Below, in pieces: positions 4,274 to 61,870 of a stretch of DNA of 64,000 nucleotides. Both the position numbers and the translations under genes were made by a program. Location: the NCBI GenBank assembly GCA_963749495.1, contig CAVVMW010000001.1, positions 128,001-192,000 of the forward strand, in the 5' to 3' direction. Source of the stretch: an uncultured bacterium. Its GTDB lineage: Bacteria; Verrucomicrobiota; Verrucomicrobiia; Limisphaerales; UBA8199. A model generated the notes under the pieces. The model had not been told where the DNA came from, did no database searches, and saw only the letters and a list, made by a program, of their open reading frames with translations. The number at the start of each line of letters is the position of its first letter. Position 1 is the first letter of the stretch.

Positions 4274-5626
4274 CTACGTTTCAGCGATGATGGAGGCGAC
4301 CAGTGGTTCTCGCTTCTCTAAGTTGCTGCTAAACAGCACCTTAGACAAGACGATGGATTGCGCCTTCGTCACGGGTCGGACGCTTTTGAGTCGGCCAATC
4401 GCCCCACGCGTGTAGGCTTGCAATAGTCGATCCTCAGTCAGGATATTGGTGTAATTGCTCTTGAAGCTTTTCGGCTGCGAGTCGGGAAGTTCGAAACCTC
4501 TACCCCAAAAAGCGAGTTTCAGGAAGGTTCGGACCTCGCCACTGGTGCAGCCCTTATCAGGATTACTCAGTATCTGCCTCTGCAACTCGTAAGGGGACGC
4601 GGGTGTCCCTGAAGCTCGTAGAGTCTGGTCAACCCGCAAAACAAGGCCAATGATCGAGGTTAACACTCCAGGGTTAACGAGGGCTTGAGTTTGCACCAGG
4701 ATGGCCCTTGCCTCCGTTTCAAGGTTGTCGGGTTGCTGCCAGTTTTCCACCCTTATGGGAATCCCGGACTGGGTTCGAAGTGGGCGAGTGACAACGTCCT
4801 GGGTGGATGAAAGATGGGCATTAAAGCGGTTTCGACAGGCAGGGCAGACAACAATCTTCGTTTCTCCTCGCTGAGGAATCATATCGAAAGTATTCACCGC
4901 AGAGCACGAGGGGCATTTCGCTGTGAACGCGTGTGGTAATGAGGTAATGGGGATTGGCATCGAAGAGCGCTCGGCCAATGCTGAGACTTTTCGTTTTGCT
5001 TCATCACTAATTTTAACCAGTTGCTCCTCAAGGTCCCTCGCATCCGTTGGCGTCCCCGCGTTCTGCAACCGCTCTGTGATCTCGAATGTTTCGACTTCAG
5101 CTTCTTTCCGGATTCGGGTGATCTTGTCGAGGAAATCTTCGTATTGATTGTAGGCGTCCCCTATGACACCAGCAATCCCGCCAACGGCGTTATCTGCAAG
5201 CCCCTGGAATCCGCGCAGGGTCAACTGGATATGTTCGAGGGCTGCTTCTATGTCCTGATTGCCGCCCTCCTCTTCGATGAGCACTGCTCGTTTGGTGCTG
5301 ACCCAATCAGAAAGACTGCTAATCTGACTCTTCAACTCCATGACATTGCGAGCAATTTGGACGCCGTGATCCCTGAGCACCTGGTTGAAGCCCGCCTCTG
5401 CGTAAATTTTAGTGGCCAGATAGGAAATGAAACATGAAGCGGCTGTTAAGATGAATGTGAGGAGCGCATTCTCAAGAGGCGTCAGGGTAGCGTTCTTGGC
5501 CATCACGATCGTGATGATGACTATCATCGCTATGCAAAGGACCGCCAGCGCCCACTGGGGCCACTTGTCTGGGCTCATTTTATCCGAGGTTTTGTTCATA
5601 ACTGAGTTTATCCCGTTAAACAGCAT
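4274..5626 (-). CDS. Hypothetical membrane-anchored coiled-coil protein with Zn ribbon
   Basis: 450-aa ORF with two N-terminal TM helices, a coiled-coil region and CPSC...CPAC; visibly lower GC than flanks; start may be 5599. Confidence 0.75.
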   Translation of the reverse strand: MLFNGINSVMNKTSDKMSPDKWPQWALAVLCIAMIVIITIVMAKNATLTPLENALLTFILTAASCFISYLATKIYAEAGFNQVLRDHGVQIARNVMELKSQISSLSDWVSTKRAVLIEEEGGNQDIEAALEHIQLTLRGFQGLADNAVGGIAGVIGDAYNQYEDFLDKITRIRKEAEVETFEITERLQNAGTPTDARDLEEQLVKISDEAKRKVSALAERSSMPIPITSLPHAFTAKCPSCSAVNTFDMIPQRGETKIVVCPACRNRFNAHLSSTQDVVTRPLRTQSGIPIRVENWQQPDNLETEARAILVQTQALVNPGVLTSIIGLVLRVDQTLRASGTPASPYELQRQILSNPDKGCTSGEVRTFLKLAFWGRGFELPDSQPKSFKSNYTNILTEDRLLQAYTRGAIGRLKSVRPVTKAQSIVLSKVLFSSNLEKREPLVASIIAET

Positions 5627-5816: not shown

Positions 5817-6053
5817 GGTTCGAGCCCCGCCGCTCCCTCCGCTTCAGGCTTGACCGTCGGCTGGCCTGTGCGACTCTGGCTTGAGCTATGACGGTGCCGC
5901 ACCGAAGGAACTACGAATATCCCGAGAAGACGCGGGGCAGCGAGGCTGCGCGCCGGATTCGGGCCAAAGCGAACAGGCTCACGTCCGCAGAACGGGCCGA
6001 GCTTCACCGCCGGGCCATGCAACTGATCTATGGCGGCACCGGGAACAAGGAAA
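5817..6053 (+). repeat. 237-bp direct repeat, copy 1 (att core + upstream region + antitoxin + PIN start)
   Basis: About 95% identical to 6754-6990 (about 11 mismatches by eye). Confidence 0.9.
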
Positions 6054-6076
6054 GGGCTCGCGAAGAAGAGACTTGA
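5888..6076 (+). CDS. Small putative antitoxin, copy 1
   Basis: Near-identical to 6825-7010, which overlaps a PIN gene. Confidence 0.65.
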   Translation: MTVPHRRNYEYPEKTRGSEAARRIRAKANRLTSAERAELHRRAMQLIYGGTGNKERAREEET

Positions 6077-6107
6077 ATCGGGCCGTCTTTGGTGGGAATT
6101 TCCCCGC

Positions 6108-6365
6108 ATGAAGACATTGACCGTGGACGACCGGCAGCGGATTCGGCTCCCGGAGGCGAAGGCAGGGCAGGTTTTCGCGTACGAACCGAATTCGGACGGG
6201 ACGATAAGACTTGTTCCGGTAGTTGCGAAGCCCGGGCCAAGGCGGGTTGTCGCCAAGCTGGTCAAACGGCGGGGCGGGCTGTTCTTCCAGGTTCCAACCG
6301 GATACACGCTCGATCCCGAGGCCATCGGCAAGGCGGTGGCCGAGGAGCGGGAAAGCCGCTCGTGA
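6108..6365 (+). CDS. AbrB-like antitoxin
   Basis: MKTLTVDDRQRIRLP...; GTGA overlap with the downstream PIN remnant. Confidence 0.65.
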   Translation: MKTLTVDDRQRIRLPEAKAGQVFAYEPNSDGTIRLVPVVAKPGPRRVVAKLVKRRGGLFFQVPTGYTLDPEAIGKAVAEERESRS

Positions 6366-6511
6366 GGACGTATTGGGACACATCGGCGGCGATCAAGCAC
6401 GTGTATGATTATTGGCACGCGTTGGTCTCGCAAAAGGCGAAGTCCGACGAACTCATCACGCGGAACGCCCGCCACTTCCAAGGACTGGCCGCAAATGTCG
6501 CCTGGCCGTGA
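6362..6511 (+). pseudogene. Internally deleted PIN toxin remnant (49 aa)
   Basis: MRTYWDTSAAI|KHVYDYWHALV...LITRNARHFQGL: both PIN ends present, core missing. Confidence 0.7.
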
Positions 6512-12552: not shown

Positions 12553-12626
12553 AGGAGGATGACAGGGTCAAACGCCGCACATGACCAGGCCTCGACTCAT
12601 CATGGACCGGAAGGGTGTCGCCTGCC

Positions 12627-12924
12627 GCGAAGCGTTTTGGACTGCGCCAGTCCTCTGGCGCTTTTCCGACTCCCGGGTCCAAAAAGCGGCAGAGGACTGC
12701 CGCAGCCCAAAACCTTCGGCCTTGTTGACGGTTCATGGAGAGCCCCCTTTGGCTTCTGCCAATGCATTGGGACCATGAACCGGTCAGGGGCCCCGAGGCT
12801 GCGAAGCGTTTTGGACTGCGGCAGTCCTCTGCCGCTTTCGCGTTCCCAGAACCAGGGACTCAAAAGCGGCAGAGGACTGCCGCAGTCCAAAACCTCGCGG
12901 GCCTCCTCACGGGTTCATGGAGAG
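12627..12924. repeat. Two REP-like palindromes (family B) with GGTTCATGG/CCATGAACC ends
   Basis: GCGAAGCGTTTTGGACTGCG.CAGTCCTCTG.CGCTTT...AAAGCGGCAGAGGACTGCCGCAG.CCAAAAC occurs twice. Confidence 0.85.
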
Positions 12925-23098: not shown

Positions 23099-23111
23099 CG
23101 CAAAAACCCCG

Positions 23112-23450
23112 TCACCGCGCAGCGGTGCTTGAAGGTAGCCGTGGTCCCATTCGTGCGATTCGTGTAATTCGTGGGACGTTCCGTGTCACCGCGTAGCGGT
23201 GCTCGAAGGTAGCCGTGGACTTCCAGTCCACGGATCCATGGCACAAGACTCCTCGCGTCGCGTAGCAACGCCTGAAACCCAGGAGCCGTTCTGCCAGTGT
23301 GAAGCCATCGAGCGTCGCTACGCGACGCGTGATTTTTCCAGCGCCCCCCACCGTGGACCGAGGTCCACGGCTACCTTCACCACGTCGCGACGCGACGCAC
23401 CCGCTGCGCCCTCTCCCCATCGGATGGGGAGAGGGTTAGGGTGAGGGGTC
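23112..23450. repeat. Family A REP element plus CCCTCTCCCCATCGGATGGGGAGAGGG hairpin (family D)
   Basis: Matches 432-625 and 43069-43220. Confidence 0.8.
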
Positions 23451-23499
23451 TGCCCGGCGCTCCGCCTCCGCCTTCACTGACCGATTTCTGGGGAGCAAA

Positions 23500-23647
23500 G
23501 AATGTTGTTGCCAAAACCGCGAAAACGGAGCACAAACGGCGATGGTTGGAGTTCGGTCGCAGAATCTGATGCACCATGAACTTTCGGGACTTCTTTATCA
23601 CGGACACCGGCCGCGTCCAGAGGCGGCACGGCCATCAGTGCCTCCTC
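23500..23647 (+). pseudogene. Relic copy of the cas3 upstream region and 5' end
   Basis: MNFRDFFITDTGR...HGHQCLL vs Cas3 MNFGEFFEAATGN..YGYQCRL; upstream GAATGTT.TTGCC...CCGCGAAAA...AGCACAA shared with 24879-24914. Confidence 0.65.
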
Positions 23648-23770
23648 ACCTCACTTGATGAGTTCCTGGTACTCATTCGGACCGTAAGCGCTCGCAGGCT
23701 TTCCGCAGTCTCCGGCTTCGAGCATCTTCTTCGATCTGCCGATCCCACTCTTCGCCACGGCGCGCGCGCA

Positions 23771-23794
23771 GGGACCGCTATTTCAAGCGGTCCC
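23771..23794. terminator. Perfect 9-bp hairpin immediately downstream (minus strand) of the mini-array
   Basis: GGGACCGCT-ATTTCA-AGCGGTCCC; no U-tract, so terminator function is uncertain. Confidence 0.4.
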
Positions 23795-23901
23795 GTTCAA
23801 TGGGGCCGCGCCCCGGGGGCGCGGAGAGCTTTCTCAGCTACGCGCGGAACTCTAAAAAACAAAACGCTTCAATGGGGCCTCGGCCACGACAGCCAGTTCT
23901 C
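23794..23901 (-). CRISPR. Single-spacer mini-array with type I-G-like repeats (one near-canonical, one degenerate)
   Basis: Minus strand: GAGAACTGGCTGTCGTGGCCGAGGCCCCATTGAAGC - 37-nt spacer GTTTTGTTTTTTAGAGTTCCGCGCGTAGCTGAGAAAG - CTCTCCGCGCCCCCGGGGCGCGGCCCCATTGAACG; shared GGCCCCATTGAA 3' end. Confidence 0.85.
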
Positions 23902-24412
23902 ATCCCGGGTCGAGGAAGGCTATGTTGTCGGGATTTACATCGGTGAAAAACACACCGTGCTGGGAACGGAAGTCGTCGAGGACGGACTGGACAACCGGCC
24001 AGCGAGGACCGAACTGCTCGCGCTTCTGCTCCAGCCAATCCGCCAGGACATCCTCGGGGAACTCAGGGCCTTTGTCCAAAAAGGCCCCGGCGAAATCAAG
24101 CACGTACGGCTTGACGACGACCGTCATCTCGATTCCGAGCAGATCGTCGTCGAAGCTCAAAAGCTGGGGAACATTGAACCCTTCGATTTTGTCCAGCCCG
24201 TGTTCCTTTAACCGCAAATACACATTGCGCTCCTTTTGGTAAGGCTCCAGGTGCTGAAAGATCTTGATTGCAGACCTGAAAGGTCTCTGTTTACTTTCTG
24301 CTACGAAGACGATACCGTGCATCCCGAGGCCAAGCCGGTCACCGAGCGTGACTGCGTGCCGGCTGGCGTATGCCTCGGCGTTTCGAAGCAAGAGCTTTTC
24401 GTTTAAAATCAT
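23900..24412 (-). CDS. Small kinase-like protein (170 aa), candidate CRISPR-repressed toxin
   Basis: Gly loop LGLGMHGIVF, AIKIF lysine, KERNVY glutamate, VLDFAG and DVNPDNI; stop codon abuts the mini-array; frame stays open up to ATG 24643. Confidence 0.7.
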   Translation of the reverse strand: MILNEKLLLRNAEAYASRHAVTLGDRLGLGMHGIVFVAESKQRPFRSAIKIFQHLEPYQKERNVYLRLKEHGLDKIEGFNVPQLLSFDDDLLGIEMTVVVKPYVLDFAGAFLDKGPEFPEDVLADWLEQKREQFGPRWPVVQSVLDDFRSQHGVFFTDVNPDNIAFLDPG

Positions 24413-24647
24413 GCACAACCAAAACCGCCACTCCGCAGAGGTCCGGATGATGTTGCTGCTCAACGGACAAGCCATCCCCATCGCCCAGATGGGGGCCGAG
24501 TTCCTCATGCTTGACAGCCCCGTCGCGCACGCGCCCTGCGTCGCCGATGTCATGCTGACTGTGGACGGACACGAGCAGCGCTGGTCAGTCCGTCTGCCAG
24601 AAGGCATCCGACCCGACCGGAGGCGCGTGCCAGGTGCAAACATTTAG
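24411..24647 (+). CDS. Small hypothetical beta-rich protein (78 aa), divergent from the kinase-like gene
   Basis: MHNQNRHSAEVRMMLLLNGQAIPIAQMGAEFLMLD...VDGHEQRWSVRLPEGI; its ATG overlaps the kinase ATG in CATG at 24410-24413. Confidence 0.6.
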   Translation: MHNQNRHSAEVRMMLLLNGQAIPIAQMGAEFLMLDSPVAHAPCVADVMLTVDGHEQRWSVRLPEGIRPDRRRVPGANI

Positions 24648-24664
24648 CTTGCATTCCGGCTGCA

Positions 24665-24693
24665 AAAGTACCATCGTTGGTCGTGTATGTCAA
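24665..24693 (-). promoter_or_regulatory. Near-consensus sigma70 promoter toward the kinase-like gene and mini-array
   Basis: TTGACA (24693-24688), 17-bp spacer ending TGG, TACTTT (24670-24665); AT-rich UP-like tract at 24701-24711. Confidence 0.75.
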
Positions 24694-24697
24694 CACC

Positions 24698-24717
24698 TTC
24701 GTTTTATTTTTCAGAGT
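24698..24717 (+). promoter_or_regulatory. PAM plus partial protospacer of the mini-array spacer
   Basis: TTC|GTTTTaTTTTTcAGAGT vs spacer GTTTTgTTTTTtAGAGT. Confidence 0.85.
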
Positions 24718-24961
24718 CAGGCCCGCCCTGCAGGAAATCGCGGCTCGCCCCCCTCGCTGGCTCCCGGACCATCCTGGATCAGGCTACCGACCGGCCGAAA
24801 CACTTCGGGATAACCTTTGCCGGGCAGGCCTTCACCGCTTCCGGGGCCGATCAGGCAGCGCCGGATTTTCCTCATGTGGAATGTTCTTGCCGAGGCCCGC
24901 GAAAAGAAGCACAAGGACCCTACAGCACCATTTGGAAGTCAGGCCCGGAATTTGAGCGAAT

Positions 24962-27878
24962 ATGAACTTCGGGGAATTCTTTGAAGCCGCGACGGGTAAC
25001 CCGCCTTATGGCTACCAGTGCCGGCTTGCCTGCGGCAGCGACGCACGCTCTGACAAACCCGAAACCCTGACGGGAGGTTCCGAATGCCGCTCGCTGCTGA
25101 TGAACGTCCCGACCGGCTTGGGCAAAACCGCCGCAGTCGTTCTGGCATGGCTGTGGAACCGGGCTGCGCATGCCGACCTTGCCCACCGAACGACTTCGCC
25201 GCGCCGCTTGGTCTATTGTCTGCCGATGCGGACGCTGGTCGAACAGACGGAGCGCGAAATCGCAAAGTGGCTGACGAACCTGTGGAACAAGACGGATCAA
25301 CTTGGATTCGGCGCCCATGCGAAGCAACAACTGGGATGGCTCGTGGAGCATTCGCCGATCATCCTCATGGGCGGGGAAAAAGCGGACCGGGATTGGGACG
25401 TTTGGCCTGAACAGCCCGCCATCCTCGTCGGCACCCAGGACATGTTGCTCTCCCGTGCCCTCAATCGCGGTTACGGCATGAGCCGCTACCGCTGGCCGAT
25501 GCATTTCGGACTGCTGAACAACGATTGCCTGTGGGTCATGGACGAGACGCAGCTGATGGGGCCTGGGCTATGGACCTCGGCTCAGCTTGACTGGATGCGC
25601 GACCGGCGTTTCAAGAGCGCTCGACCATCCTTCACTTGGTGGACGAGTGCAACACTGGGGACCCAATTCTTGGAAACCAAGGACCGGAAGGACAGCAAGA
25701 TGGAATTGCCGGAGCCGGTCGTTGTCGGCGACGACCCCAACGCGCAGTCAATCCTGGGCGCTGTTCGTCCTGCCTCATGGTGGGCGCCGCCCAATCAGTC
25801 GGCGCCGGGTTCAAAGACCAGGAGTGCGACGAAGCATTCGGCACAGGAAGGCGAATCGTTCTTTTGCTTGCTCGCGGCGGCGATTGGCGACGAACACCTG
25901 AGCGGCTCTCTGTCCCTGGGCATTTGCAACACCGTGAGAGGGGCGCAACAACTGAAGCAGGCCATTGACGGGCTCCGGGAATCGGGGCGCTGTCCGCACG
26001 ACGTCATTCTGTTGACGTCTCCGGTTCCGCCCCTCTGACCGCAAGGAGTCTATGGACAAGCTCGTTGCCTTCGAGCGTCAACGAAAAGACAGCGAGCGAG
26101 GTTCCGCCGTTCCGCCCGCGGGTTTGATCTGCGTGACCACGCAAGTCATTGAGGCTGGTGTGGATGTTTCCGCGCGCCGAATTTGGATGGCATTGGCCCC
26201 GTGGCCCTCGCTCATCCAACGTCTCGGACGGCTCAATCGAGACGGAAAGCTAAACGGGCAGGCCAAGGCGTACTTCTTCAAGCAGCCCGCCGACGCCAAA
26301 ATCAAACCGAAAGACCGGATCGGGCCTTACCTCGCAACTGACTTACAGTTGGCCGAAAAGTTGGCCGACCACCTGGTCAAGATTTACGACGCACAGCCGG
26401 ACCTTGCAGCCGTGGAGGCCCTTGCACGGCTGACGAAGAACTCAGCAACGAAGGAACTCGCCGGAGACGCTTTGAGCGTGAAACCGGAACCATTCCCCCG
26501 TGCGTTGGTGGTTCATGGGCTGTTCTCGACGGAGCCAGATGTTTTCGGTGGGTTCACGGATGTCGGCCCCTTCATCCGGAACTCTGACCCCGACGCCGAT
26601 GTGACTGTGTTTTGGCGAGAGTGGAAGGGCAAGCAACGAGCGCTCTCTGGTGACGCTTTGGCTGGACCACATTTCACGGCTGACGAAGGCTGCCAAGTTC
26701 CTTTTTGGAGACTCCGAGACTTTCTCGGCGATCAGCGAAGGGCTTGGGTGTGGAGTCCGAAAAACGCAGATGGAGAACCCGCTTGGGAACCCGTCAATCC
26801 ATCATCGGTCTGCCCCGGCATGGTCGTCATGCTGCCGGCGGCCTTTGGAGGCTACAGCCAGTCCGTCGGCTGGACCGGTAATCGAGACCACACGTTGGCC
26901 AACCTTCCGTTACCGGGTCCATTCGAGGAAGGCTACAGCCACGACCAATTCAGCGAAAAGGGATGGTGGGTGGAACTCGGAACGCACCTCGACAACGTCG
27001 AGAACGTAGCGAGACAAATCGCTTCAGTCTTGGAACTGCCAGCCCCACTCGCCGAATCAATCGTCACGGCAGGAGCTTTTCACGACATCGGCAAGGCCCT
27101 CGCGCCGTGGCAATTCGCCTTGCCCCAGCCGCTGAAAGATTGTTTGAAGCTGTGGGCCAAAGCACCATACTGGCTAAAAGTGTCCGGTGCGGCGAAGCAG
27201 GTGAAGGTTCAAACCCTCACCGAGCATCTGCGCACCTTGTGTTCAGGCGTCGGAGAAGTGCAACAAGAAGCGAGCGAGGACGGAATCGTCACTCTGCGCT
27301 GGCTGCTATCACGACCGCTGACCGCAGACGAAAAAGAGCGCCTCACTTCTTTCATCGGCGTCCAGCGGGCTTCGATGGTTCCTTTTCGCCCCAAGCTCCG
27401 CCACGAAGCCGCGTCCGCACTGGCGTTGTGGCACCGTTACTTCCGAGCCAAGACGACGGACTTCCCGGCGCTGGTCATCTACCTCGCCGCTGCCCATCAC
27501 GGCAAGGTCCGCACGGTGCTGGCGTCCCGCGAAGCTGACGGCCAGGATGTCTGCGGGGTGCCCAAGTCAGCGCAAACGCTCCCTTGGCCCGCTAAAGACA
27601 ATCCGATGGCGCTTGATTTCACATGCGCAACGGACGGTGCCGAAGGCAAGTTTTCGGAAGATGGAACAGGGTTTTTCTTTGAATCACCCGGCTGGACTGC
27701 GCTCGTCGCTGACCTGCTTGGCCCTTGTCAGGAAACGGCAGAGACAACTGCATCCTCCGCAGTGCCTGCCGGTGAGCCTTCCAAACTGGGGCCGTTTGCG
27801 CTCGCTTGGCTCGAAGTGCTCGTGCGGGCGGCGGACGAGCGAGCCAGCGCACAACCCTCCCACCGTTTGCCACCTTGA
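24962..27878 (+). CDS. cas3: Type I-G Cas3 (SF2 helicase + C-terminal HD nuclease); +1 frameshift near 26021
   Basis: PTGLGKT, LPMRTLVEQ, DETQ, SAT, TTQVIEAGVD, QRLGRLNR; HL..V, HDIGK, RHE, HHGK; removing one C restores LTSRFRPSDRKESM. Confidence 0.92.
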
Positions 27879-27882
27879 GCCG

Positions 27883-30000
27883 ATGCGAACTTCTGCCGCA
27901 GATTCACGAAGCACGCTATCAGCCGGGAGATGGCCGGTAGTCACACTGCCCGGTGTGTCGCTGGACAGCTTGGGGCTTTACTTGTCTGCCTTGGGGCTCC
28001 TCGCAGTGACCTGCCGCCAGTGGCCGACGGCGCGCGGATGCTGGCGGCAGGGTTCCTTTGTGCTGGTCAATGGCCCGCCAACTCTTGGCGAACTGCTTCG
28101 CTACCTTTCCGAAGTGGGGAGTGAGGGTGCATGGCGGACCTACAAGCCAACGTGGATCGAGAGCAAAAAGAAAGACCGCGGCAAGGAACCCGTCAATACG
28201 CGGCACTGGGCATCATTCGAAGCGGATGAGAGCATTCTGCCCCTGTTCGCCGCCCATCTGGCATGTGGAAATCGGCTCGCTTTCAACCCCCTATTCGGCA
28301 AGGGCGGAACCGAAGGCCGACGTGATTTTGCGAAGGGTTGGCGTGAGGCTGTCGAAGATATCAAGAATCCACCGCGAGGGGTTGACCGAGAACAAGTCAG
28401 CCAGGATTTAGCCGCTCTGCTGTCTGGGGAAGCCTGCCGCCACGTTCTCGGCGACTTCAAAGCCGCGTGTTGGTTCAGCGCCGCCAACGAAATCTACAAT
28501 AGCGGCATGAAGAGCTTCAGCCGCAAAGGGCAGGTCACGCCGTGGGCGGTTGTGCTGGCGTTTGAGGCGTTTCACTTTCTCGCGGGCAGCGCCTCGCGCC
28601 AATTGGGCAACAACCGGCAGGCGAGGGGAGCTTTTCCGTTTGTCACCACGGCGGCAGCGCCGGAAAGAGAAAAAGAGGCCGGGCGCTCGGTAGGTGAGTT
28701 CTGGGCTCCGGTTTGGGAACGCCCGATGACGATTGAGGAAGTCCGCGCCTTGTTTACTCGCGGGCGCGCGGAAGTGGACGGCACAGGCGCCCTGACCCCA
28801 GCGGCGTTCGGTGCTGCCATAGTCCAGCGAGGCGTTAATGCAGGAATCGCCGAGTTCCGTCGGTTCACGCTCTTCCACACGACCAGTGCACAGACTTTCG
28901 AATCCCGGCTGGCGGCGACAATTCCCGTCGCAGGGCAGCCTGTCAGCGCGCTTTCGCAAACCGTTTCGAGAGTCTTGGCGTTGCGTGACCGCCTGCCAGC
29001 GGATCGGAAAAAAGGCCAGAGCTGGATTTATGTTGGCCTTCGCGGTCCGTTGGACGAGGCGTTGGTGAGATTGGCGGCGGAAGCAACACCAGAAGCTGGT
29101 TGCATGCTCACCGACAACTTGCTCACCGCTTTGGAGCGCGTGGATCGCAATCGCGCATTTCGCAAGACCAAGCCGCCCATTCGGTTCAGGTTGTTCCCGG
29201 CTTCTTGGGCAAAGTCACTGTTCCCGGACGCACATCCGCCATGCGAGACGCGGCTGGCGATGGCTATCTGTTCGCTCTGCGGAAACAGCGATGCTCAGAA
29301 GCCCGCTCGCTTCTTGGGCTACCGCTTCGGCATGGAACCGATCAACAAAGCCCAGCGTTTATGGGCTTTCCCCGAAGCGTCGCCCTTCCGCCGTGTGTGG
29401 GCAGGAGCCAACTTGGCGTCGGACCTGGCCGCGGTCCTTCGTCGGCGCCTTGTGGAATCTGAACCAACGGATTCGCCGCCCTTCAGGGCAGCAATGCAGA
29501 CAGGACTGGCCGACGTGCTCGATTGGCTCGATGGCGAAGTCGATGAGGCGGCGCTCGCGGCTTGGATCAACCGCTGCAGTCTCTTCGATTGGTCGGCCTG
29601 CGATCTCCCGCGATTTCCGAACCGCAACGTCGCCGATTCCGCAAATGCGCTACACGCGTTCTACGCATTTTTCCGGCCGCTGTTCGATCCCTCGGCGCTC
29701 CGGGCGATCCGCAATCCGCAGATCGAAGAACCGCCGAAAGCTGGCCCGCTCCGGTCGCTTGCTGCATTGCTCAACCGCGGCGATGTTGCCGGGGCATGGG
29801 GTCTCGCGCGCGGAGCTTATGCCCGCCTCGGCGTCCCAACAGCGGATTTCCCGATTTGGCAGGAGTTCACTCTCCAGCGCCCGCAAAGGCTGCTCGCAGC
29901 ACTCCTTGTCCCCGTCCGTTTCCACCGAATCGCCGCCGCGTTCCGCCGGTGGCAATCACCAAGTCAAATCGACAAACATGAACAAATCCAATCTGCTTGA
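27883..30000 (+). CDS. csx17: Type I-G large subunit Csx17 (Cas8u/Cas8g)
   Basis: YLSALGLL, FNPLFGKGG, PWAVVLAFEA, AFPF, GEFWAPVW, RGVNAGIAEFRRF; follows cas3. Confidence 0.85.
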   Translation: MRTSAADSRSTLSAGRWPVVTLPGVSLDSLGLYLSALGLLAVTCRQWPTARGCWRQGSFVLVNGPPTLGELLRYLSEVGSEGAWRTYKPTWIESKKKDRGKEPVNTRHWASFEADESILPLFAAHLACGNRLAFNPLFGKGGTEGRRDFAKGWREAVEDIKNPPRGVDREQVSQDLAALLSGEACRHVLGDFKAACWFSAANEIYNSGMKSFSRKGQVTPWAVVLAFEAFHFLAGSASRQLGNNRQARGAFPFVTTAAAPEREKEAGRSVGEFWAPVWERPMTIEEVRALFTRGRAEVDGTGALTPAAFGAAIVQRGVNAGIAEFRRFTLFHTTSAQTFESRLAATIPVAGQPVSALSQTVSRVLALRDRLPADRKKGQSWIYVGLRGPLDEALVRLAAEATPEAGCMLTDNLLTALERVDRNRAFRKTKPPIRFRLFPASWAKSLFPDAHPPCETRLAMAICSLCGNSDAQKPARFLGYRFGMEPINKAQRLWAFPEASPFRRVWAGANLASDLAAVLRRRLVESEPTDSPPFRAAMQTGLADVLDWLDGEVDEAALAAWINRCSLFDWSACDLPRFPNRNVADSANALHAFYAFFRPLFDPSALRAIRNPQIEEPPKAGPLRSLAALLNRGDVAGAWGLARGAYARLGVPTADFPIWQEFTLQRPQRLLAALLVPVRFHRIAAAFRRWQSPSQIDKHEQIQSA

Positions 30001-31237
30001 TCCCGCCACGCTGCTCGGCAGCGGCGAACACCGTCTCACCCTCCAGGCAACCCTCCAGCCGGTGGCCGGCCTCGATCGCTTCCAGCCCGCTGGCTTTCCG
30101 GAAATCGGTCATGTGATCTACGACTCACCACGGCGCGATGGCCGGCCCGATAAGATCTGCATCGTCGATAGCGCCGCGAGCATGGCCAACCATCTCGAAG
30201 CCGTCTGTCTCGCAGGCCCCTTCGGCGCGACAGTCGCCCCTGAGTTGGCTGGTCTGCCTTACGTGGAATGTGTCACCGACGAGTATCAATTGGACGCGAC
30301 CGGATTCGCTTCGGTCACCAAATCAGGACCGCACACAACGGTGATGAACACCTTCACGGAAGGGCATCGGCTGGCGTCTTCGTACTTTTGTCTGGGAAAA
30401 GAAAAGACGAAGGGCGTCGAGAAAGGTGAAGGGGAGGCTGCGGCTGACTCAACGAAGAAAAAAAGGAAGACGAAGGCTTTGCTCGTTGTTGATGGGAAGA
30501 CGTCCGATCGAGGATTCTACGAAGCTCTGCGTGACGAATTCAACGTCGTGAATTTAGGAACCAATTCGCATCCCTTGCCACAGGACTGGTGGCGGGTTTT
30601 CAAAGTTATCTTCAAGTACGACCCGAACTCGCTCGTTCACGGCATTCTCTTTCCCGCGCTGGGAATCAAAATCCCGCGCGTTCTCACAGGGCATCTTGAA
30701 GCATTTGGCGCGGCGCGAGTCGGGAGTGCGGGCGTGAAATTCGACAAGCTGCTGATGACTACGTCCGGCCAGCCCATCTTTGCCGTGGATGAAGAAACTG
30801 CGCGCGAGATTCGCGCGACCTTCATCATCGATCTTGCGTTGCTCCGCTCGTTTGGCCGCACTGAAAAGAAAGACGGCAACGTGAACGTCCAAGGCTTGAG
30901 CGAAGCGCAAAAGCGGCTGCTGCTTGCGCTCGCGCTGTGGAAGATTGGCAGGTTGCTGGCCAAGCCATTCCGCTATCGCTCACGCTGCGATCTCGAAATT
31001 GCGAGTTTGCGGCGTACCGATGCCGCCGCCGCTGGTGACCTGAAAATCGAGGATCTGGAGGTTGATATCGCAGACGCGATCCGCAGTGCAGGTTTCCCGA
31101 AGAACCCTGTAACGCAGGTCTATTGGCCTGCAGGCGAGATTTTCAAAAAGGCGAAGGAGAAAGCGGACACCTCGGACGAGAATCAACCGGCTGGAGAGGA
31201 AGACGAAGAACAGGCTGGCGGAACCAACGAGGAGTGA
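29978..31237 (+). CDS. csb1: Type I-G backbone subunit Csb1 (Cas7u)
   Basis: RFQPAGFP, VDSAASMANHLE, EGHRLAS, DPNSLVHG, RYRSRCDL. Confidence 0.88.
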   Translation: MNKSNLLDPATLLGSGEHRLTLQATLQPVAGLDRFQPAGFPEIGHVIYDSPRRDGRPDKICIVDSAASMANHLEAVCLAGPFGATVAPELAGLPYVECVTDEYQLDATGFASVTKSGPHTTVMNTFTEGHRLASSYFCLGKEKTKGVEKGEGEAAADSTKKKRKTKALLVVDGKTSDRGFYEALRDEFNVVNLGTNSHPLPQDWWRVFKVIFKYDPNSLVHGILFPALGIKIPRVLTGHLEAFGAARVGSAGVKFDKLLMTTSGQPIFAVDEETAREIRATFIIDLALLRSFGRTEKKDGNVNVQGLSEAQKRLLLALALWKIGRLLAKPFRYRSRCDLEIASLRRTDAAAAGDLKIEDLEVDIADAIRSAGFPKNPVTQVYWPAGEIFKKAKEKADTSDENQPAGEEDEEQAGGTNEE

Positions 31238-31243
31238 ACGGCA

Positions 31244-32776
31244 ATGGTGAGGGTCATCCTTCAGCAGCGTTTTCCCCTGGGGCGCTTTCACGCGAACCCC
31301 TGGAAGGCCTTTCCGTTCGACGATCCCTATGGCGAATGGCCGCCGAGTCCGTGGCGATTGCTGCGCGCGCTTGTTGCTCGCAGCCATCAACTCGCGCGTG
31401 AGGAGCCCACCGTGGGCGAAATCGAGCGTGCCGCTCTGGTGCGCGCATTTTGCACCAGCTCGGTCCGGTGGCATCTGCCTGAGCAGTCGTGGCGCGGACC
31501 CGGTTTGCGGCAGTATCAGCCAGCGGAGTTCAGCCGCGTTCCCAAATCGGCGAAAGAACCTGGTCGCATGGCGCACAGCACCACAAAGAACCAGGACAAC
31601 TGCTGGCTCACCGCCGGGCCGGAAGACCCGGTTTGGTGGTTCATCGAAGGCGAGCACTGGAATGATGAGGTCGTGGGGGTTCTCGATGCGTGTCTGGCCC
31701 GGATGACCTATTTTGGTCGTGCCGAATCCATCACTCTGATGCAACGTGCTGACAGCAAAGTGCAGCATCCCGAACCAAATTGCTTTGCGATACCGCAACG
31801 CACCTCCCGTAGTGTGCTTGTTTTGTTTCCCACCCCCGACGCCACGCTGACCGATGTCGAACGCGGCACCGACGATCCGGCGATCGCCCAATCAACTGTG
31901 CCGCCAGGTGCCGTTTGGCGGTTCGCGGAACGTCCACGCCAGCCCCCGCTGCAGGCAATCCCAAGACGGCCCAAACGAGTATCGTCGGAAGTTCGCTTCC
32001 TCCAATTTGCAATCGGCTCACGCGTCTCGCCGACCAGGGATTCAGCGGCCATCCTGACGAATCGTTTTAGGGGTCGAGCCATCAGAATCTTGAGCGGCGG
32101 GTCGTGGAGTAAAGCTCCTGCCGAGCTCAAAGCGGACCTCGCTTTCTTCACGGGCAAGGACGCCGATGGAAAGCCCCTCGAAGGGCATCAGCACGCATTC
32201 TTCGCCCTGTGGTTTGATCGCGCGACTCGCAAAGCTGCACGCATGTTGGTCTGGCGTAAGACTCCGTTTTCCCACGAAGAACAACAGGCATTGCTCGCAG
32301 CCGCGCAAGAGCCGCTGAGCCTCGGTTACAACGACAAAGGCAAAGACCCGTGGCGCAGCAAAGACCCGTGGCGCATTCACCTCGTCCCGCTCGATACGAC
32401 GGTCCAGCCACCGAGTGGATTCGATCCATCGCAGCAATTCGTAACTTGGGAGGCGATGTCGCTCTTTGTGCCACCCCAACACATTTACGACCGCCACGGA
32501 AAGGAGAAACCGGGCAAATCACTGGCATCTCAGGTTCTGCGCGAACTGCAAAGTCATGGATTTGCGGCGACCAACGCTTCGATTGAAGTGTTGGGCAGCG
32601 GGTGGGTGAAAGTGCATCAACCTCGCGTCGAAAGTGGCGAGAAGACCAATTCGACAAAGCGCGGCTTTCGAATACGCCTGACATTTCCCATTCCAATCAG
32701 CGGCCCCATCGCCCTCGGCCACTCCGCCCACTTCGGCCTTGGCCTGTTCGTGCCGGCGGCTGGCGGCGGCCTTTGA
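31244..32776 (+). CDS. csb2: Type I-G Csb2 (Cas5/Cas6 fusion)
   Basis: GRFHA, EWPPSPWRLLRAL, YFGRAES; C-terminal GPIALGHSAHFGLGLFVP Gly loop. Confidence 0.92.
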   Translation: MVRVILQQRFPLGRFHANPWKAFPFDDPYGEWPPSPWRLLRALVARSHQLAREEPTVGEIERAALVRAFCTSSVRWHLPEQSWRGPGLRQYQPAEFSRVPKSAKEPGRMAHSTTKNQDNCWLTAGPEDPVWWFIEGEHWNDEVVGVLDACLARMTYFGRAESITLMQRADSKVQHPEPNCFAIPQRTSRSVLVLFPTPDATLTDVERGTDDPAIAQSTVPPGAVWRFAERPRQPPLQAIPRRPKRVSSEVRFLQFAIGSRVSPTRDSAAILTNRFRGRAIRILSGGSWSKAPAELKADLAFFTGKDADGKPLEGHQHAFFALWFDRATRKAARMLVWRKTPFSHEEQQALLAAAQEPLSLGYNDKGKDPWRSKDPWRIHLVPLDTTVQPPSGFDPSQQFVTWEAMSLFVPPQHIYDRHGKEKPGKSLASQVLRELQSHGFAATNASIEVLGSGWVKVHQPRVESGEKTNSTKRGFRIRLTFPIPISGPIALGHSAHFGLGLFVPAAGGGL

Positions 32777-60309: not shown

Positions 60310-60349
60310 GTATTTCAGCCTTTAGCCTTTAGCCTTCAGCCTTCAGCCT

Positions 60350-61870
60350 TCAACGCGTCTGTCCATCCACGCCCGGCGGCGGTTGCTCGTAAGCGTACTG
60401 GTCGTCATCCTTGACCTCCTTCTTCAGACGGTAGAGTTCGGCCTTGAGCCGGGCGGCCAGTTCTTTGTGCGCCGGGTCATCATAGAGGTTATGGAGTTCA
60501 TCGGGGTCCTTGACGAGGTCATAGAGCTCCCACTGGTCTTTCTTCCAGAAGCAGATGAGCTTGTGGGTCATCGTGCGCACGCCGTAATGCGCGCGGGTGT
60601 TGTGGTCGCCGGGGTCGTGGTAATAGCGGTAGTAGTAGCTGGTTCGCCAATCGGCGGGAGGTTCCCCTTTGAGCAGCGGCGCCAGGCTGCGGCCCTGCAT
60701 GTCGTCCGGGGTCTTGAGCCCCGCAAGGTCGAGGAACGTCGGCGCAAAATCGGTATTGATGGCCATGGCGTCCTGCACCAGGCCCGGCCTGGCCACGCCC
60801 GGCCAGCGGACAATGAAGGGCATGCGCACCGAGGCCTCGTACATGAACCGTTTGTCGTAGAGGCCGTGGTCGCCCAGGAAGAAGCCCTGGTCGCTGGTGT
60901 AAATGACCACGGTGTTCGAGGCCAGGCCATTGCGGTCCAGCCAATCGAGCAGGCGGCCGACGTTGTCATCGATGGACTGCACGCAGGCCAGGTAATCCTG
61001 GAGGTAACGCTGGTATTTCCAGGCGTTGAGGGCGTCGCCCGTGAGGGTCCGGGTGCGGCCGTCGAGCTGGATTTGGACTTCGGTGGGTTTGACGTTAAGC
61101 CACTGGTTGCGTGCCTGGCCGCTCAAATCAGGCGGGGGCTCCAGCTTGAGGTCGCGCCGGGTGAGGTCCTCGAAGACCTTCTGACGGCACTCGCGGATGG
61201 CATCGGTGCGCGTGGCGTAATCGTCGCGCAAGGTCGGCGGTTCCGGGATCGAAGTGCCGACGAACAGAGCGCGGTGAGGCGGGTCCGGGTCCCAGGGCCG
61301 GTGCGGGGCCTTGTGGTGGCACATGAGAAAGAACGGCTTGTCCGCGGGCCGGTTCTTGAGGAAATCGATGGCCAGGTCGGTGATGATGTCCGTGACATAG
61401 CCGGGGATGACGCGGCGGCCATTGGGCGTGAGGAAGGCCGGGTCAAAATAGACGCCCTGGCCCGGGAGAATGATCCAATGGTCGAACCCGGTCGGTTCGC
61501 TGCCCAGGTGCCATTTGCCGATCATCCCGGTGTAATAGCCCGCCGTTTGCAGGTACTTGGCGGCGGTGGGCTGGGAGCCGTCGAACCGGTTGAAGGTCGG
61601 CACGCCGTTGAGGTGGCTGTATTTGCCGGTGAGGATCGTGGCCCGGCTGGGCGAGCAGATCGAATTGACGCAAAAACAGTTGGCGAAACGGACCCCATCA
61701 TGGGCCAGGCGATCGAGGTTGGGCGTCCGGTTGACCCGGCTGCCGTAGGCGCTGATGGCGTGCGCCGCGTGATCGTCGCTCATGATGAAAAGTATGTTCG
61801 GCCGGCCCTGCGCTCCCGCCGCGGCCAAGGTTCCCATCACGACTGCCGCCCCAATCCATGGAGTTCTCAC
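60350..61870 (-). CDS. Sulfatase (S1); start uncertain
   Basis: RPNILFIMSDDH, CSPSRATILTG, GKWHL, SDQG, DKR, ELYDL..DP.EL. Confidence 0.92.
   Translation of the reverse strand: MRTPWIGAAVVMGTLAAAGAQGRPNILFIMSDDHAAHAISAYGSRVNRTPNLDRLAHDGVRFANCFCVNSICSPSRATILTGKYSHLNGVPTFNRFDGSQPTAAKYLQTAGYYTGMIGKWHLGSEPTGFDHWIILPGQGVYFDPAFLTPNGRRVIPGYVTDIITDLAIDFLKNRPADKPFFLMCHHKAPHRPWDPDPPHRALFVGTSIPEPPTLRDDYATRTDAIRECRQKVFEDLTRRDLKLEPPPDLSGQARNQWLNVKPTEVQIQLDGRTRTLTGDALNAWKYQRYLQDYLACVQSIDDNVGRLLDWLDRNGLASNTVVIYTSDQGFFLGDHGLYDKRFMYEASVRMPFIVRWPGVARPGLVQDAMAINTDFAPTFLDLAGLKTPDDMQGRSLAPLLKGEPPADWRTSYYYRYYHDPGDHNTRAHYGVRTMTHKLICFWKKDQWELYDLVKDPDELHNLYDDPAHKELAARLKAELYRLKKEVKDDDQYAYEQPPPGVDGQTR

Follow-up and report, generated by a model that had tools for sequence, protein, structure and literature searches.

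The window analysed here comprises 64,000 nucleotides (nt) of an uncultured bacterium of the Verrucomicrobiota (assembly GCA_963749495.1, contig CAVVMW010000001.1, positions 128,001 to 192,000). Direct reading of the sequence showed that it carries, at positions 23795-23901 of its minus strand and beside a type I-G cas operon, a one-spacer mini-array that resembles a CRISPR array. The explanation that best combines the evidence is that this element is probably a type I-G regulatory mini-array of the CreR/CreA class, encoding a guide similar to a CRISPR RNA (crRNA), and comparison of related loci makes it very likely that the guide and its target in the same locus form a functional pair. The element would be best described as a guide that exerts negative feedback on its own synthesis and probably on cas expression, because the features most conserved beside the target are the promoter of the guide itself and, with less regularity, one for the cas genes. 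The parts on which this reading depends, including the protospacer-adjacent motif (PAM), are as follows.

23901-23866, minus strand: psiR1, a degenerate repeat of which only the last 14 nt, GGCCCCATTGAAGC, are retained, the final 8 nt being ATTGAAGC.
23865-23830, minus strand: spacer-like sequence of 36 nt, GTTTTGTTTTTTAGAGTTCCGCGCGTAGCTGAGAAA, whose nt 1-17 pair with 24701-24717 except at 6 and 12.
23829-23795, minus strand: psiR2, a well-kept repeat whose GC stem is intact and whose tail reads CCCCATTGAAC.
23794-23771, minus strand: a 9-bp hairpin formed by GGGACCGCT and AGCGGTCCC, directly after psiR2.
24698-24717, plus strand: TTC PAM (24698-24700) followed by a 17-nt partial protospacer, GTTTTATTTTTCAGAGT (24701-24717), matching spacer nt 1-17.
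24665-24693, minus strand: promoter-like TTGACA-17-TACTTT (TTGACA at 24693-24688, TACTTT at 24670-24665), a consensus match.

The anatomy of the mini-array is that of CreR and CreA elements, in which two repeat-like sequences surround a single spacer-like one outside a normal array, the nucleotides of the 5' handle being kept in psiR1 and the full 3' GC-stem hairpin in psiR2. The psiR1 remnant would supply an 8-nt 5' handle, ATTGAAGC, and psiR2 would supply the 3' hairpin of a crRNA-like RNA, although a fold of the whole mini-array RNA did not cleanly reproduce the repeat hairpins. The repeat resembles that of the genome's own type I-G array of 38 or more copies, with the same stem and the same tail; the repeat of the long array ends in GTTGAAGC, and psiR1 in ATTGAAGC. 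The motif of the hairpin at 23771-23794 also lies 3' of the mini-arrays in a second type I-G system of this genome and in a related locus, L055. Upstream, the stop codon (23902-23900) of a 170-amino acid (aa) open reading frame (ORF) shares 2 nt with the start of psiR1. A better full-length match of the spacer to a phage or plasmid had been named in a first-pass annotation of this DNA as evidence that would count against a regulatory role. The exact 36-mer was absent from the viral contigs searched, blastn of the mini-array against phage records gave no match, and comparison with plasmids returned two matches only, both at chance level (E 0.9).

Guide and target agree at 15 of 17 positions (1-5, 7-11 and 13-17), with mismatches at 6, 12 and 18, where pairing ends. 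When both strands of 13 kb were searched without bias, 24701-24717 was the sole site with at most three mismatches in 18 nt, a level reached in the same 13 kb by one of 50 shuffled versions of the window's spacer, which is T-rich. The sequences flanking the target bear no resemblance to the repeats. The -35 box of TTGACA-17-TACTTT sits 4 nt from the PAM, and this promoter-like site reads toward a 78-aa gene (in antisense), then the gene for a kinase-like protein, then the mini-array. The spacer/target match, the mismatch positions, the TTC PAM, the promoter spacing and the 4-nt distance from the PAM, all reported by the first-pass annotation, hold on direct reading of the sequence. According to the accessible text of PMC9638904, the PAM of type I-G is TTN, cleavage by Csb2 leaves a handle of 8 nt, and the sixth base is flipped; that these rules apply to the present site, as had been supposed, agrees with the PAMs and mismatch positions of the related loci described next.

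Related loci were all found through the gene for the kinase-like protein: a scan of one genome per species gave 79, and a match in one further genome brought the set to 80, so that the frequency of mini-arrays given here is not that of type I-G at large. Further mini-arrays, defined by pairs of repeat-tail motifs 70-90 nt apart, numbered 20 (21 with the window), and all lay on the strand of the kinase gene. Six of these loci share the order of the window, with the mini-array after the kinase gene; in the other fourteen it is found past the stop codon of the 78-aa gene, i.e., upstream of the kinase gene. The cas3g gene was present within the flanks (6 kb) of 22 of the 80 loci, where NCBIfam models identified cas3g, csb1, csb2 or csx17 as the next genes, and an adjacent mini-array was found in 16 of these 22. 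Four mini-arrays belonged to loci in which no cas3g was seen, and in two of these the flank on that side is shorter than 1.1 kb. In L060, the kinase and 78-aa genes stand between cas3 and csx17. In the window and in three of the six loci arranged like it (L006, L008 and L055), psiR1 begins 0-17 nt after the kinase stop codon, which leaves no room for a separate promoter and fits a single transcript. L079 carries two kinase-like copies (5274-5470 and 5953-6474), its mini-array following the first and preceding the second cassette.

For each spacer we then took the best ungapped match of nt 1-18 in the whole locus, on both strands and with no periodicity assumed. An in-locus site with at most three mismatches was obtained for 13 of the 21 spacers, compared with 12 of 1050 shuffled ones, and three further spacers had sites with four mismatches and a TTN PAM. 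Among the 30 mismatches of the 13 pairs, 24 fell at position 6 (10), 12 (5) or 18 (9), and six were spread over the other 15 positions. The PAMs of these pairs were TTC (7), TTA (3), TTT (1), TTG (1) and CTA (1), hence TTN in 12 of 13. The paired sequences form at least eight unrelated classes, as illustrated by the starts GTTTT.TTTTT.AGAGT (window), ATGGTCTTTCG (L030), GAAGC.CGCAATGCGGA (L082) and AGTGC.GTTGGTATG (L066), which indicates that spacer and target have changed together. Covariation of this kind at other type I-G loci had been suggested by the first-pass annotation as a check on its proposal, and it was found. As in CreR and CreA, the match is thus partial, PAM-proximal and located in the element's own cas locus beside a cognate PAM. 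Target position 6, the base left unpaired by Cascade, was A in eight of the 13 best pairs and in ten of the 16 counted pairs, across unrelated sequences.

Promoter geometry was compared at 17 targets, namely the 13 with at most three mismatches, the three with four, and that of L028, where only a seed match of 9 nt accompanies a TTC PAM. Promoter calls are matches to a sigma-70-like consensus, which is not established in these phyla. A -35/-10 pair located 0-8 nt past the PAM, on the opposite strand and firing away from the R-loop, was present at nine of the 17 targets and at 68 of 5100 random positions (1.3%), and by eye a TTGAC pentamer could be read within 5 nt of the PAM at ten of the 17. 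By consensus matches, therefore, the target adjoins a promoter, as it does in CreR and CreA, and the PAM-adjacent minus-strand promoter proposed for the window is a recurrent feature. It had been assigned to the kinase-like gene, toward which it does point; in 14 loci, however, the PAM-adjacent promoter lies directly upstream of the mini-array (e.g., TTGACT-17-TACAAT in L028 and L030), which makes it first of all the promoter of the guide, and in the window the proposed transcript would pass in antisense through the whole 78-aa gene. The geometry is mirrored in L066 and L082, where the PAM-adjacent promoter faces cas3. Promoters in the cas direction that read through the target were found in five of the 17 loci, compared with 2.6% of random positions. 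Strong examples are TTGACT-18-TATACT (L006) and TTGACT-18-TATAGT (L034), 1 nt past the stop codon of the 78-aa gene, and L028 has TTGACA-16-TATGAT on the PAM-distal side. Since the target lies between the 78-aa gene and cas3, and in several loci just downstream of a cas-direction promoter, autoregulation of cas genes appears at least as likely as control of a toxin.

Two protein-coding genes lie between the target and the mini-array of the window, with two further candidate promoters.

23900-24412, minus strand: gene for a 170-aa kinase-like protein with a RIO/Bud32-like N-lobe and catalytic loop (alignment and fold model).
24411-24647, plus strand: 78-aa gene encoding a PilZ-like beta-barrel protein, oriented like cas3 and head-to-head with the kinase gene.
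24290-24318, plus strand: predicted promoter of the 78-aa gene, TTTACT-17-TACCGT, within the kinase coding sequence; a weak copy, read by eye as a consensus match.
24649-24677, plus strand: weak candidate promoter in the cas direction, TTGCAT-17-CATCGT, 2 nt past the stop codon of the 78-aa gene; read by eye, it failed the scan.

The kinase-like ORF had been annotated with 170 codons, a stop codon abutting the mini-array and a start at 24413; length and stop stand, and the correct start is 24412. The gene is single-copy in the source genome. The protein had 256 homologues at E<=0.001, and those listed were mostly 160-180 aa long, so that its short length is native and does not result from truncation by the mini-array. 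A 247-aa extension of the ORF (to 24643) was rejected as a real gene on account of the same lengths and of the conserved gene on the opposite strand. Kinases are recognised by a glycine loop, an ATP-binding Lys, a helix-C Glu and a catalytic D-x4-N loop, all of which are conserved in this family. Residues G28, G30, G33, K50, E61, D106, D113, D158 and N163 were invariant across 36 sequences, as was an LDFAGA motif (105-110) that precedes a long helix. The fold model had a mean predicted local distance difference test (pLDDT) value of 95, and its best Foldseek matches were RIO1, RIO2 and Bud32/PRPK (E 4e-5 to 7e-4, template modelling (TM) score about 0.45). The protein shares with these kinases the fold of N-lobe, hinge and catalytic loop as well as the glycine loop, Lys, Glu and D-x4-N; it differs from them in that modest TM score, in a chain that ends after the catalytic loop, and in having LDFAGA before a long helix instead of DFG. 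The chain stops seven residues past N163, without the usual DFG-type metal loop and C-lobe. Pfam gave no match, and NCBIfam gave only a sub-threshold match to PrkT (E 0.002). The PADLOC model PDLC01137, 'ST_Kinase', matched with E 1.1e-50 over positions 5-162 of its 162 positions.

The 78-aa gene was missing from the first-pass inventory. By tblastn it was detected in 79 of the 80 loci, always divergent and start-to-start with the kinase gene, and the sole locus without it has just 179 nt of flank on that side. In the window the two start codons overlap in the palindrome CATG, and in the 77 loci that allowed the ORF to be delimited, the start-to-start gap was mostly between -22 and +20 nt. With divergent genes whose starts overlap or abut in all 77, the pair departs from the single-operon layout of type II toxin-antitoxin (TA) systems. 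The model of the 78-aa protein (pLDDT 92) is a small beta-barrel, whose best Foldseek matches were PilZ domains, albeit weak ones (E 0.03-0.3, TM about 0.5); the nearest named Atlas cluster was likewise PilZ, at 0.83, which we take as a lead only. PilZ domains bind cyclic di-GMP (c-di-GMP) through the motifs RxxxR and D/NxSxxG, neither of which was visible on inspection of the consensus of 34 sequences, and Pfam gave no match for the protein.

The kinase-like and the 78-aa protein are predicted to bind each other. The modelled complex scored 0.89, and the best control 0.05. Of 157 solved complexes 116 attained that mark, as did two of 215 mismatched pairs; these counts apply only roughly, since alignments made for this analysis were used. 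Runs shared at least 95% of contacts, with a partner pLDDT of at least 88. The predicted interface involves kinase residues 25-31 (glycine loop), 95-101 (hinge), and 162 and 165 (catalytic loop), so that the modelled partner lies over the nucleotide cleft in the way expected of an inhibitor.

The two genes also appear to be interlocked in their transcription. In 29 of 78 loci a promoter-like site that met the threshold of the scan lies within the kinase coding sequence, on the opposite strand and 80-110 nt away from where the 78-aa gene starts, typically as TTGGCT-17-TACCAT. This site lies opposite the conserved ...AES(Q/K)... and HGIV codons, and the -35 hexamer, both in the window and in its commonest form (TTGGCT), is the antisense of AGY-Ser plus Gln/Lys codons. 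The position of a promoter-like site over conserved codons hints at selection on both strands. Each gene would thus be read from inside or beyond the other, and the two mRNAs would overlap in antisense. Outside CRISPR loci the neighbours of this cassette were unrelated genes, for example those for sigma factors, luciferase-family enzymes, IMP dehydrogenase or response regulators. A quick tree of the kinase, poorly supported (12 of 74 inner branches starred), scattered the type I-G-linked rows, with eight label changes compared with a shuffled mean of 10.8, and gives no order of events. TA-type genes lie just 3' of the mini-array, on the same strand, in L006, L008, L034, L038, L051, L054, L055 and L092. 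They are HicB-like, HTH_3/Xre-like or UPF0175 genes, or a small gene paired with a ParE-like toxin gene, and may reflect either a wider link between type I-G guides and TA genes or only clustering in defence islands.

The cas operon downstream of the target was assigned to type I-G by matches to the NCBIfam models TIGR02621, TIGR04113, TIGR02570 and TIGR02165 (cas3g, csx17, csb1 and csb2).

24962-27878, plus strand: cas3g, as two ORFs (24962-26038 and 26052-27878), with one extra base near 26021.
27547-30000, plus strand: ORF holding csx17/cas8g, whose true start is probably later than 27547.
29291-31237, plus strand: ORF holding csb1/cas7g, whose true start is probably near 30000.
31244-32776, plus strand: csb2, a Cas5-Cas6 fusion and the repeat-processing enzyme (NCBIfam).

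Compared with the intact Cas3g of L055, the first frame of cas3g reads ...DVILLTS and the expected RFRP resumes in the next frame (26013-26052). Either genuine decay or a fault of the assembly could account for this frameshift; three short contig pieces from one DNA run matched the window (23409-23450, 24401-24560 and 24662-24837), none of them over the frameshift. Cas3 would be dispensable for a regulatory Cascade. Neither cas1, cas2, cas4 nor an array adjoins the operon, the ORFs after csb2 had no family match, and the window contains no array. A second, complete type I-G system lies about 260-270 kb away on the same contig and comprises csb1, csb2, cas3 and a gene of the cas4-cas1 type, besides an array with 38 or more repeats. 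It has a mini-array of its own just before csb1, on the opposite strand (C1:410129-410350; L092:1630-1850). Starting with TGGTTGTGGGTATTTTGC, the spacer of that mini-array agrees with TGGTTCTGGGTCTTTTGC at 16 of 18 positions, again with mismatches at 6 and 12, and its target has a TTT PAM and lies 11-28 nt upstream of the csb1 start codon. The kinase cassette is absent from this system. The second mini-array is followed by the same hairpin motif, and then by a small gene and a ParE-like gene.

Beyond the mini-array of the window, two relics were recognised.

About 23690-23770, minus strand: truncated 3' half of a small antitoxin-like gene, corresponding to the small gene of the second system.
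About 23500-23610, plus strand: diverged copy of the cas3 leader and first codons, with a mean column identity of 74% over the aligned stretch.

The cas3-leader relic corresponds to 24879-24990, which means that the block of target, cassette and mini-array is bracketed by direct repeats of the cas3 5' region and suggests insertion by recombination at the leader. A comparable relic of a cas3 start, facing the 3' end of the kinase gene, is found in L026 (6560-6600). Two 34-nt direct repeats at 23111-23218 (74 nt apart), considered as a second mini-array, were rejected as palindromic intergenic repeats of different sequence. Such repeats are scattered in the window (also at 23215-23400 and 12624-12895), and some, such as units of the form CCGTGGAC..GTCCACGG, superficially mimic a mini-array. 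Arrays of 7-nt tandem repeats (e.g., GTCCACA x19) at 1013-1303 and 60314-60352, inside or beside long ORFs, are unrelated to the element described here.

From the anatomy, conservation and covariation observed here, together with the predicted folds, we infer a circuit of RNA processing, Cascade binding, repression, co-transcription and, possibly, toxicity. A minus-strand transcript would carry psiR1, spacer and psiR2, and Csb2 would cut it into a guide with the 5' handle AUUGAAGC. Cascade (Csx17, Csb1 and Csb2) loaded with this guide would recognise the TTC at 24698-24700 and form a short R-loop over 24701-24717; since pairing stops at nt 17, the site would be held rather than degraded. The bound complex would then lie 4 bp from the -35 box of TTGACA-17-TACTTT and about 15-50 bp downstream of the weak plus-strand promoter directed at cas3. 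It would turn down the guide transcript together with the kinase-like mRNA upstream on it and, probably, the cas3-csx17-csb1-csb2 operon, which would amount to negative feedback. The kinase and PilZ-like pair is an autonomous two-gene cassette, apparently with interlocked antisense promoters, that several type I-G loci carry inside the guide unit. Functional coupling of the two is suggested by the constant co-orientation of mini-array and kinase gene, by the kinase stop codon abutting psiR1 and by the cassette of L060, which lies within the cas operon.

Were Cascade lost or blocked, the promoter would open and kinase mRNA would rise, and because the same RNA is antisense to the partner gene, the partner would fall; more kinase and less partner would have a guard or addiction effect. 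That a type I-G lineage of Planctomycetota/Verrucomicrobiota has wired a mini RIO-like kinase and a PilZ-like inhibitor into its guide unit in this way, so that loss of Cascade or an anti-CRISPR would lead to arrest, is a reading that we put forward tentatively, as somewhat more doubtful than not, a role of the kinase as toxin being plausible. The first-pass annotation had proposed a circuit of this type, in which Cascade represses a single transcript encoding guide and kinase-like protein, a possible toxin. Its functional-looking guide/target pair and the fit to one transcript are retained here. The kinase is not an orphan toxin of the CreT kind, since a protein partner is predicted for it and 58 of the 80 pairs show no type I-G cas3 in their vicinity.

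Several results weigh against the proposed circuit. The same 58 of 80 cassettes without cas3g in their flanks show that the pair is mostly found elsewhere, and the second type I-G system, whose mini-array is not accompanied by the kinase, shows that the guide can do without the cassette. Among 77 cassettes, 13 have a sigma-70-like promoter on the far side of the 78-aa gene, several of them CRISPR-linked, compared with about 7% of control windows; outside CRISPR loci such a promoter is mostly missing, and the kinase gene therefore normally has some other one. In the window, a kinase mRNA started at TTGACA-17-TACTTT would carry a 246-nt leader antisense to the entire 78-aa gene. A stricter automated promoter scan of 23300-25100 returned no site, because TACTTT fits only three of the six positions of the -10 consensus, and the window is not among the just five of 17 loci whose cas-direction promoter passed the scan. 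Five of the 21 spacers (L028, L047, L052, L017 and L083) have no site with four or fewer mismatches. The frameshifted cas3 and the lack of adjoining cas1, cas2, cas4 or array indicate that the system may be decaying, and kinase activity is uncertain because no DFG motif follows the catalytic loop.

Three other explanations have to be set against the proposed circuit. The mini-array may only autoregulate the cas operon and itself, the cassette being an uncoupled mobile TA-like or defence cassette that lands beside type I-G leaders; we consider this rather unlikely, although it is a serious competitor. The second type I-G system, which targets itself at the csb1 start without any kinase, speaks for this explanation, and the accessible text of 10.1101/2023.03.10.532045 mentions creA-like elements adjoining cas promoters in I-U (now I-G) and other subtypes. 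The first cas gene was preceded by the target in all type I-G-linked loci examined. The majority of the cassettes (58 of 80) are situated away from type I-G, the relic copy of the cas3 leader flanking the block is expected after insertion by recombination, and ordinary TA-type genes (ParE-like, HicB-like, HTH, UPF0175) also follow mini-arrays, which may be mere clustering. An uncoupled cassette does not account, however, for the adjacent mini-array on the kinase strand in 16 of the 22 type I-G-linked cassettes, for kinase stop codons that abut or overlap psiR1 in the window, L006, L008 and L055 (three of the six loci arranged like it), for the cassette inside the cas operon of L060, or for the best-conserved PAM-side promoter pointing to kinase and mini-array rather than to cas genes (nine compared with five of 17).

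Alternatively, the kinase and PilZ-like proteins might regulate the CRISPR system, for example by phosphorylation of Cas proteins or as a signal input, rather than act as toxin and antidote, the mini-array tying their level to Cascade activity. The full-length match to a PADLOC model built from CRISPR-adjacent kinases, the invariant catalytic residues and the partner gene's location directly before the cas3 promoter and in the direction of cas3 fit such a role. Yet most family members have no cas genes nearby and sit among unrelated housekeeping or regulatory genes, and the predicted partner covers the nucleotide cleft in the manner of an inhibitor, so that we regard a regulatory role as improbable. 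It is very unlikely that the mini-array is a decayed array remnant without function, its match to 24701-24717 being due to chance or to an old duplication. A degenerate psiR1, a frameshifted cas3 and the lack of adjoining adaptation genes are features of decay, and the spacer is T-rich, one in 50 shuffles equalling the match level in the window's 13 kb. A remnant would not, on the other hand, show the same design in 13 of 21 loci, joint change of spacer and target, mismatches clustered at 6, 12 and 18, TTN PAMs in 12 of 13 pairs, a fixed distance between promoter and PAM, and target flanks unlike the repeats.

Regulatory guides of the CreR/CreA type are known for types I-B, I-E, I-F and V-A, and for I-G the sources, as far as their accessible text goes, yielded only a mention in a supplementary figure. 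Liu et al. (10.1101/2023.03.10.532045) described, in the text available, CreR mini-arrays of types I-B, I-E and V-A that are expected to act by autorepression, and creA-like elements are mentioned there for I-U, the old name of I-G (Figure S7). The present element shares with CreR, as presented in that text, the two repeat-like sequences around one spacer-like sequence, psiR1 keeping the 5' handle and psiR2 the 3' hairpin, and the PAM-proximal partial match (15 consecutive nt in Salmonella) at a site that is flanked by a PAM and adjoins a promoter within the element's own cas locus. It differs in that the best-conserved promoter on the target side drives the guide (and the kinase gene) instead of the cas genes, in the weakness of the window's cas-direction promoter, in the embedded two-protein cassette, and in belonging to type I-G.

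CrePA of Acinetobacter type I-F, for which Shu et al. (10.1101/2024.01.05.574328) proposed arrest when Cascade is inhibited, is similar, going by the accessible text, in having a protein gene in or beside the cas operon whose promoter is matched by a crRNA-like guide with a cognate PAM; its own match covers the first 19 nt except the 12th. CreP, as given there, is a 103-aa KilAC-domain protein with no protein antidote, confined to the gap between cas3 and csy1. The system described here is of type I-G, its kinase-like ORF has no Pfam match and does have a predicted partner, 58 of 80 cassettes lie outside CRISPR loci, and a single transcript appears to carry both gene and guide. CreTA, from haloarchaeal type I-B and Pseudomonas type I-F (PMC9458426, 10.1101/2024.10.29.618823), is alike in logic, since a Cascade-bound degenerate guide represses a harmful neighbour and makes the cas genes addictive; according to the accessible parts of these sources CreT is a small RNA toxin, whereas the promoter here faces protein-coding genes.

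PADLOC PDLC01137, from a CRISPR-adjacent kinase of Rhodopirellula, represents the same protein family; it consists of a label only ('present with a putative adaptation module operon next to I-C systems'), without mini-array, partner or mechanism, and our literature searches found no paper on this kinase family. The row for type I-G in a table of Shmakov et al. (PMC10120712), in the portion accessible, gives 235 loci and a mini-array fraction of 0.04, and the accessible text of a 2025 review (PMC12737573) contains nothing on type I-G mini-arrays. The first-pass annotation had held the combination of type I-G and kinase-like gene to be new. Literature searches on type I-G together with CreA, toxin or kinase did not find the combination described, with the limit that supplementary figures and tables outside the search may bear on priority; the kinase family itself had already been flagged as CRISPR-associated in PADLOC.

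Collectively, these loci would constitute a clear, comparatively supported type I-G case of a regulatory guide, in which the 5+1 periodicity of Cascade binding is visible in natural sequence variation and the PAM is fixed against the -35 box. The guide is linked to a widespread, so far uncharacterised cassette of a mini-kinase and a PilZ-like protein, head-to-head and mutually antisense. If the tentative guard reading is true, the range of CRISPR-repressed toxins would widen to a kinase, in what would be the first kinase-type and the first type I-G guard circuit; a single de-repressed promoter would raise the toxin and lower the antidote at once, in a compact, testable circuit of about 1 kb that senses inhibition of Cascade. 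If it is false, the loci would still provide a clean natural example of the rules that govern seed, PAM and binding without cleavage in type I-G.

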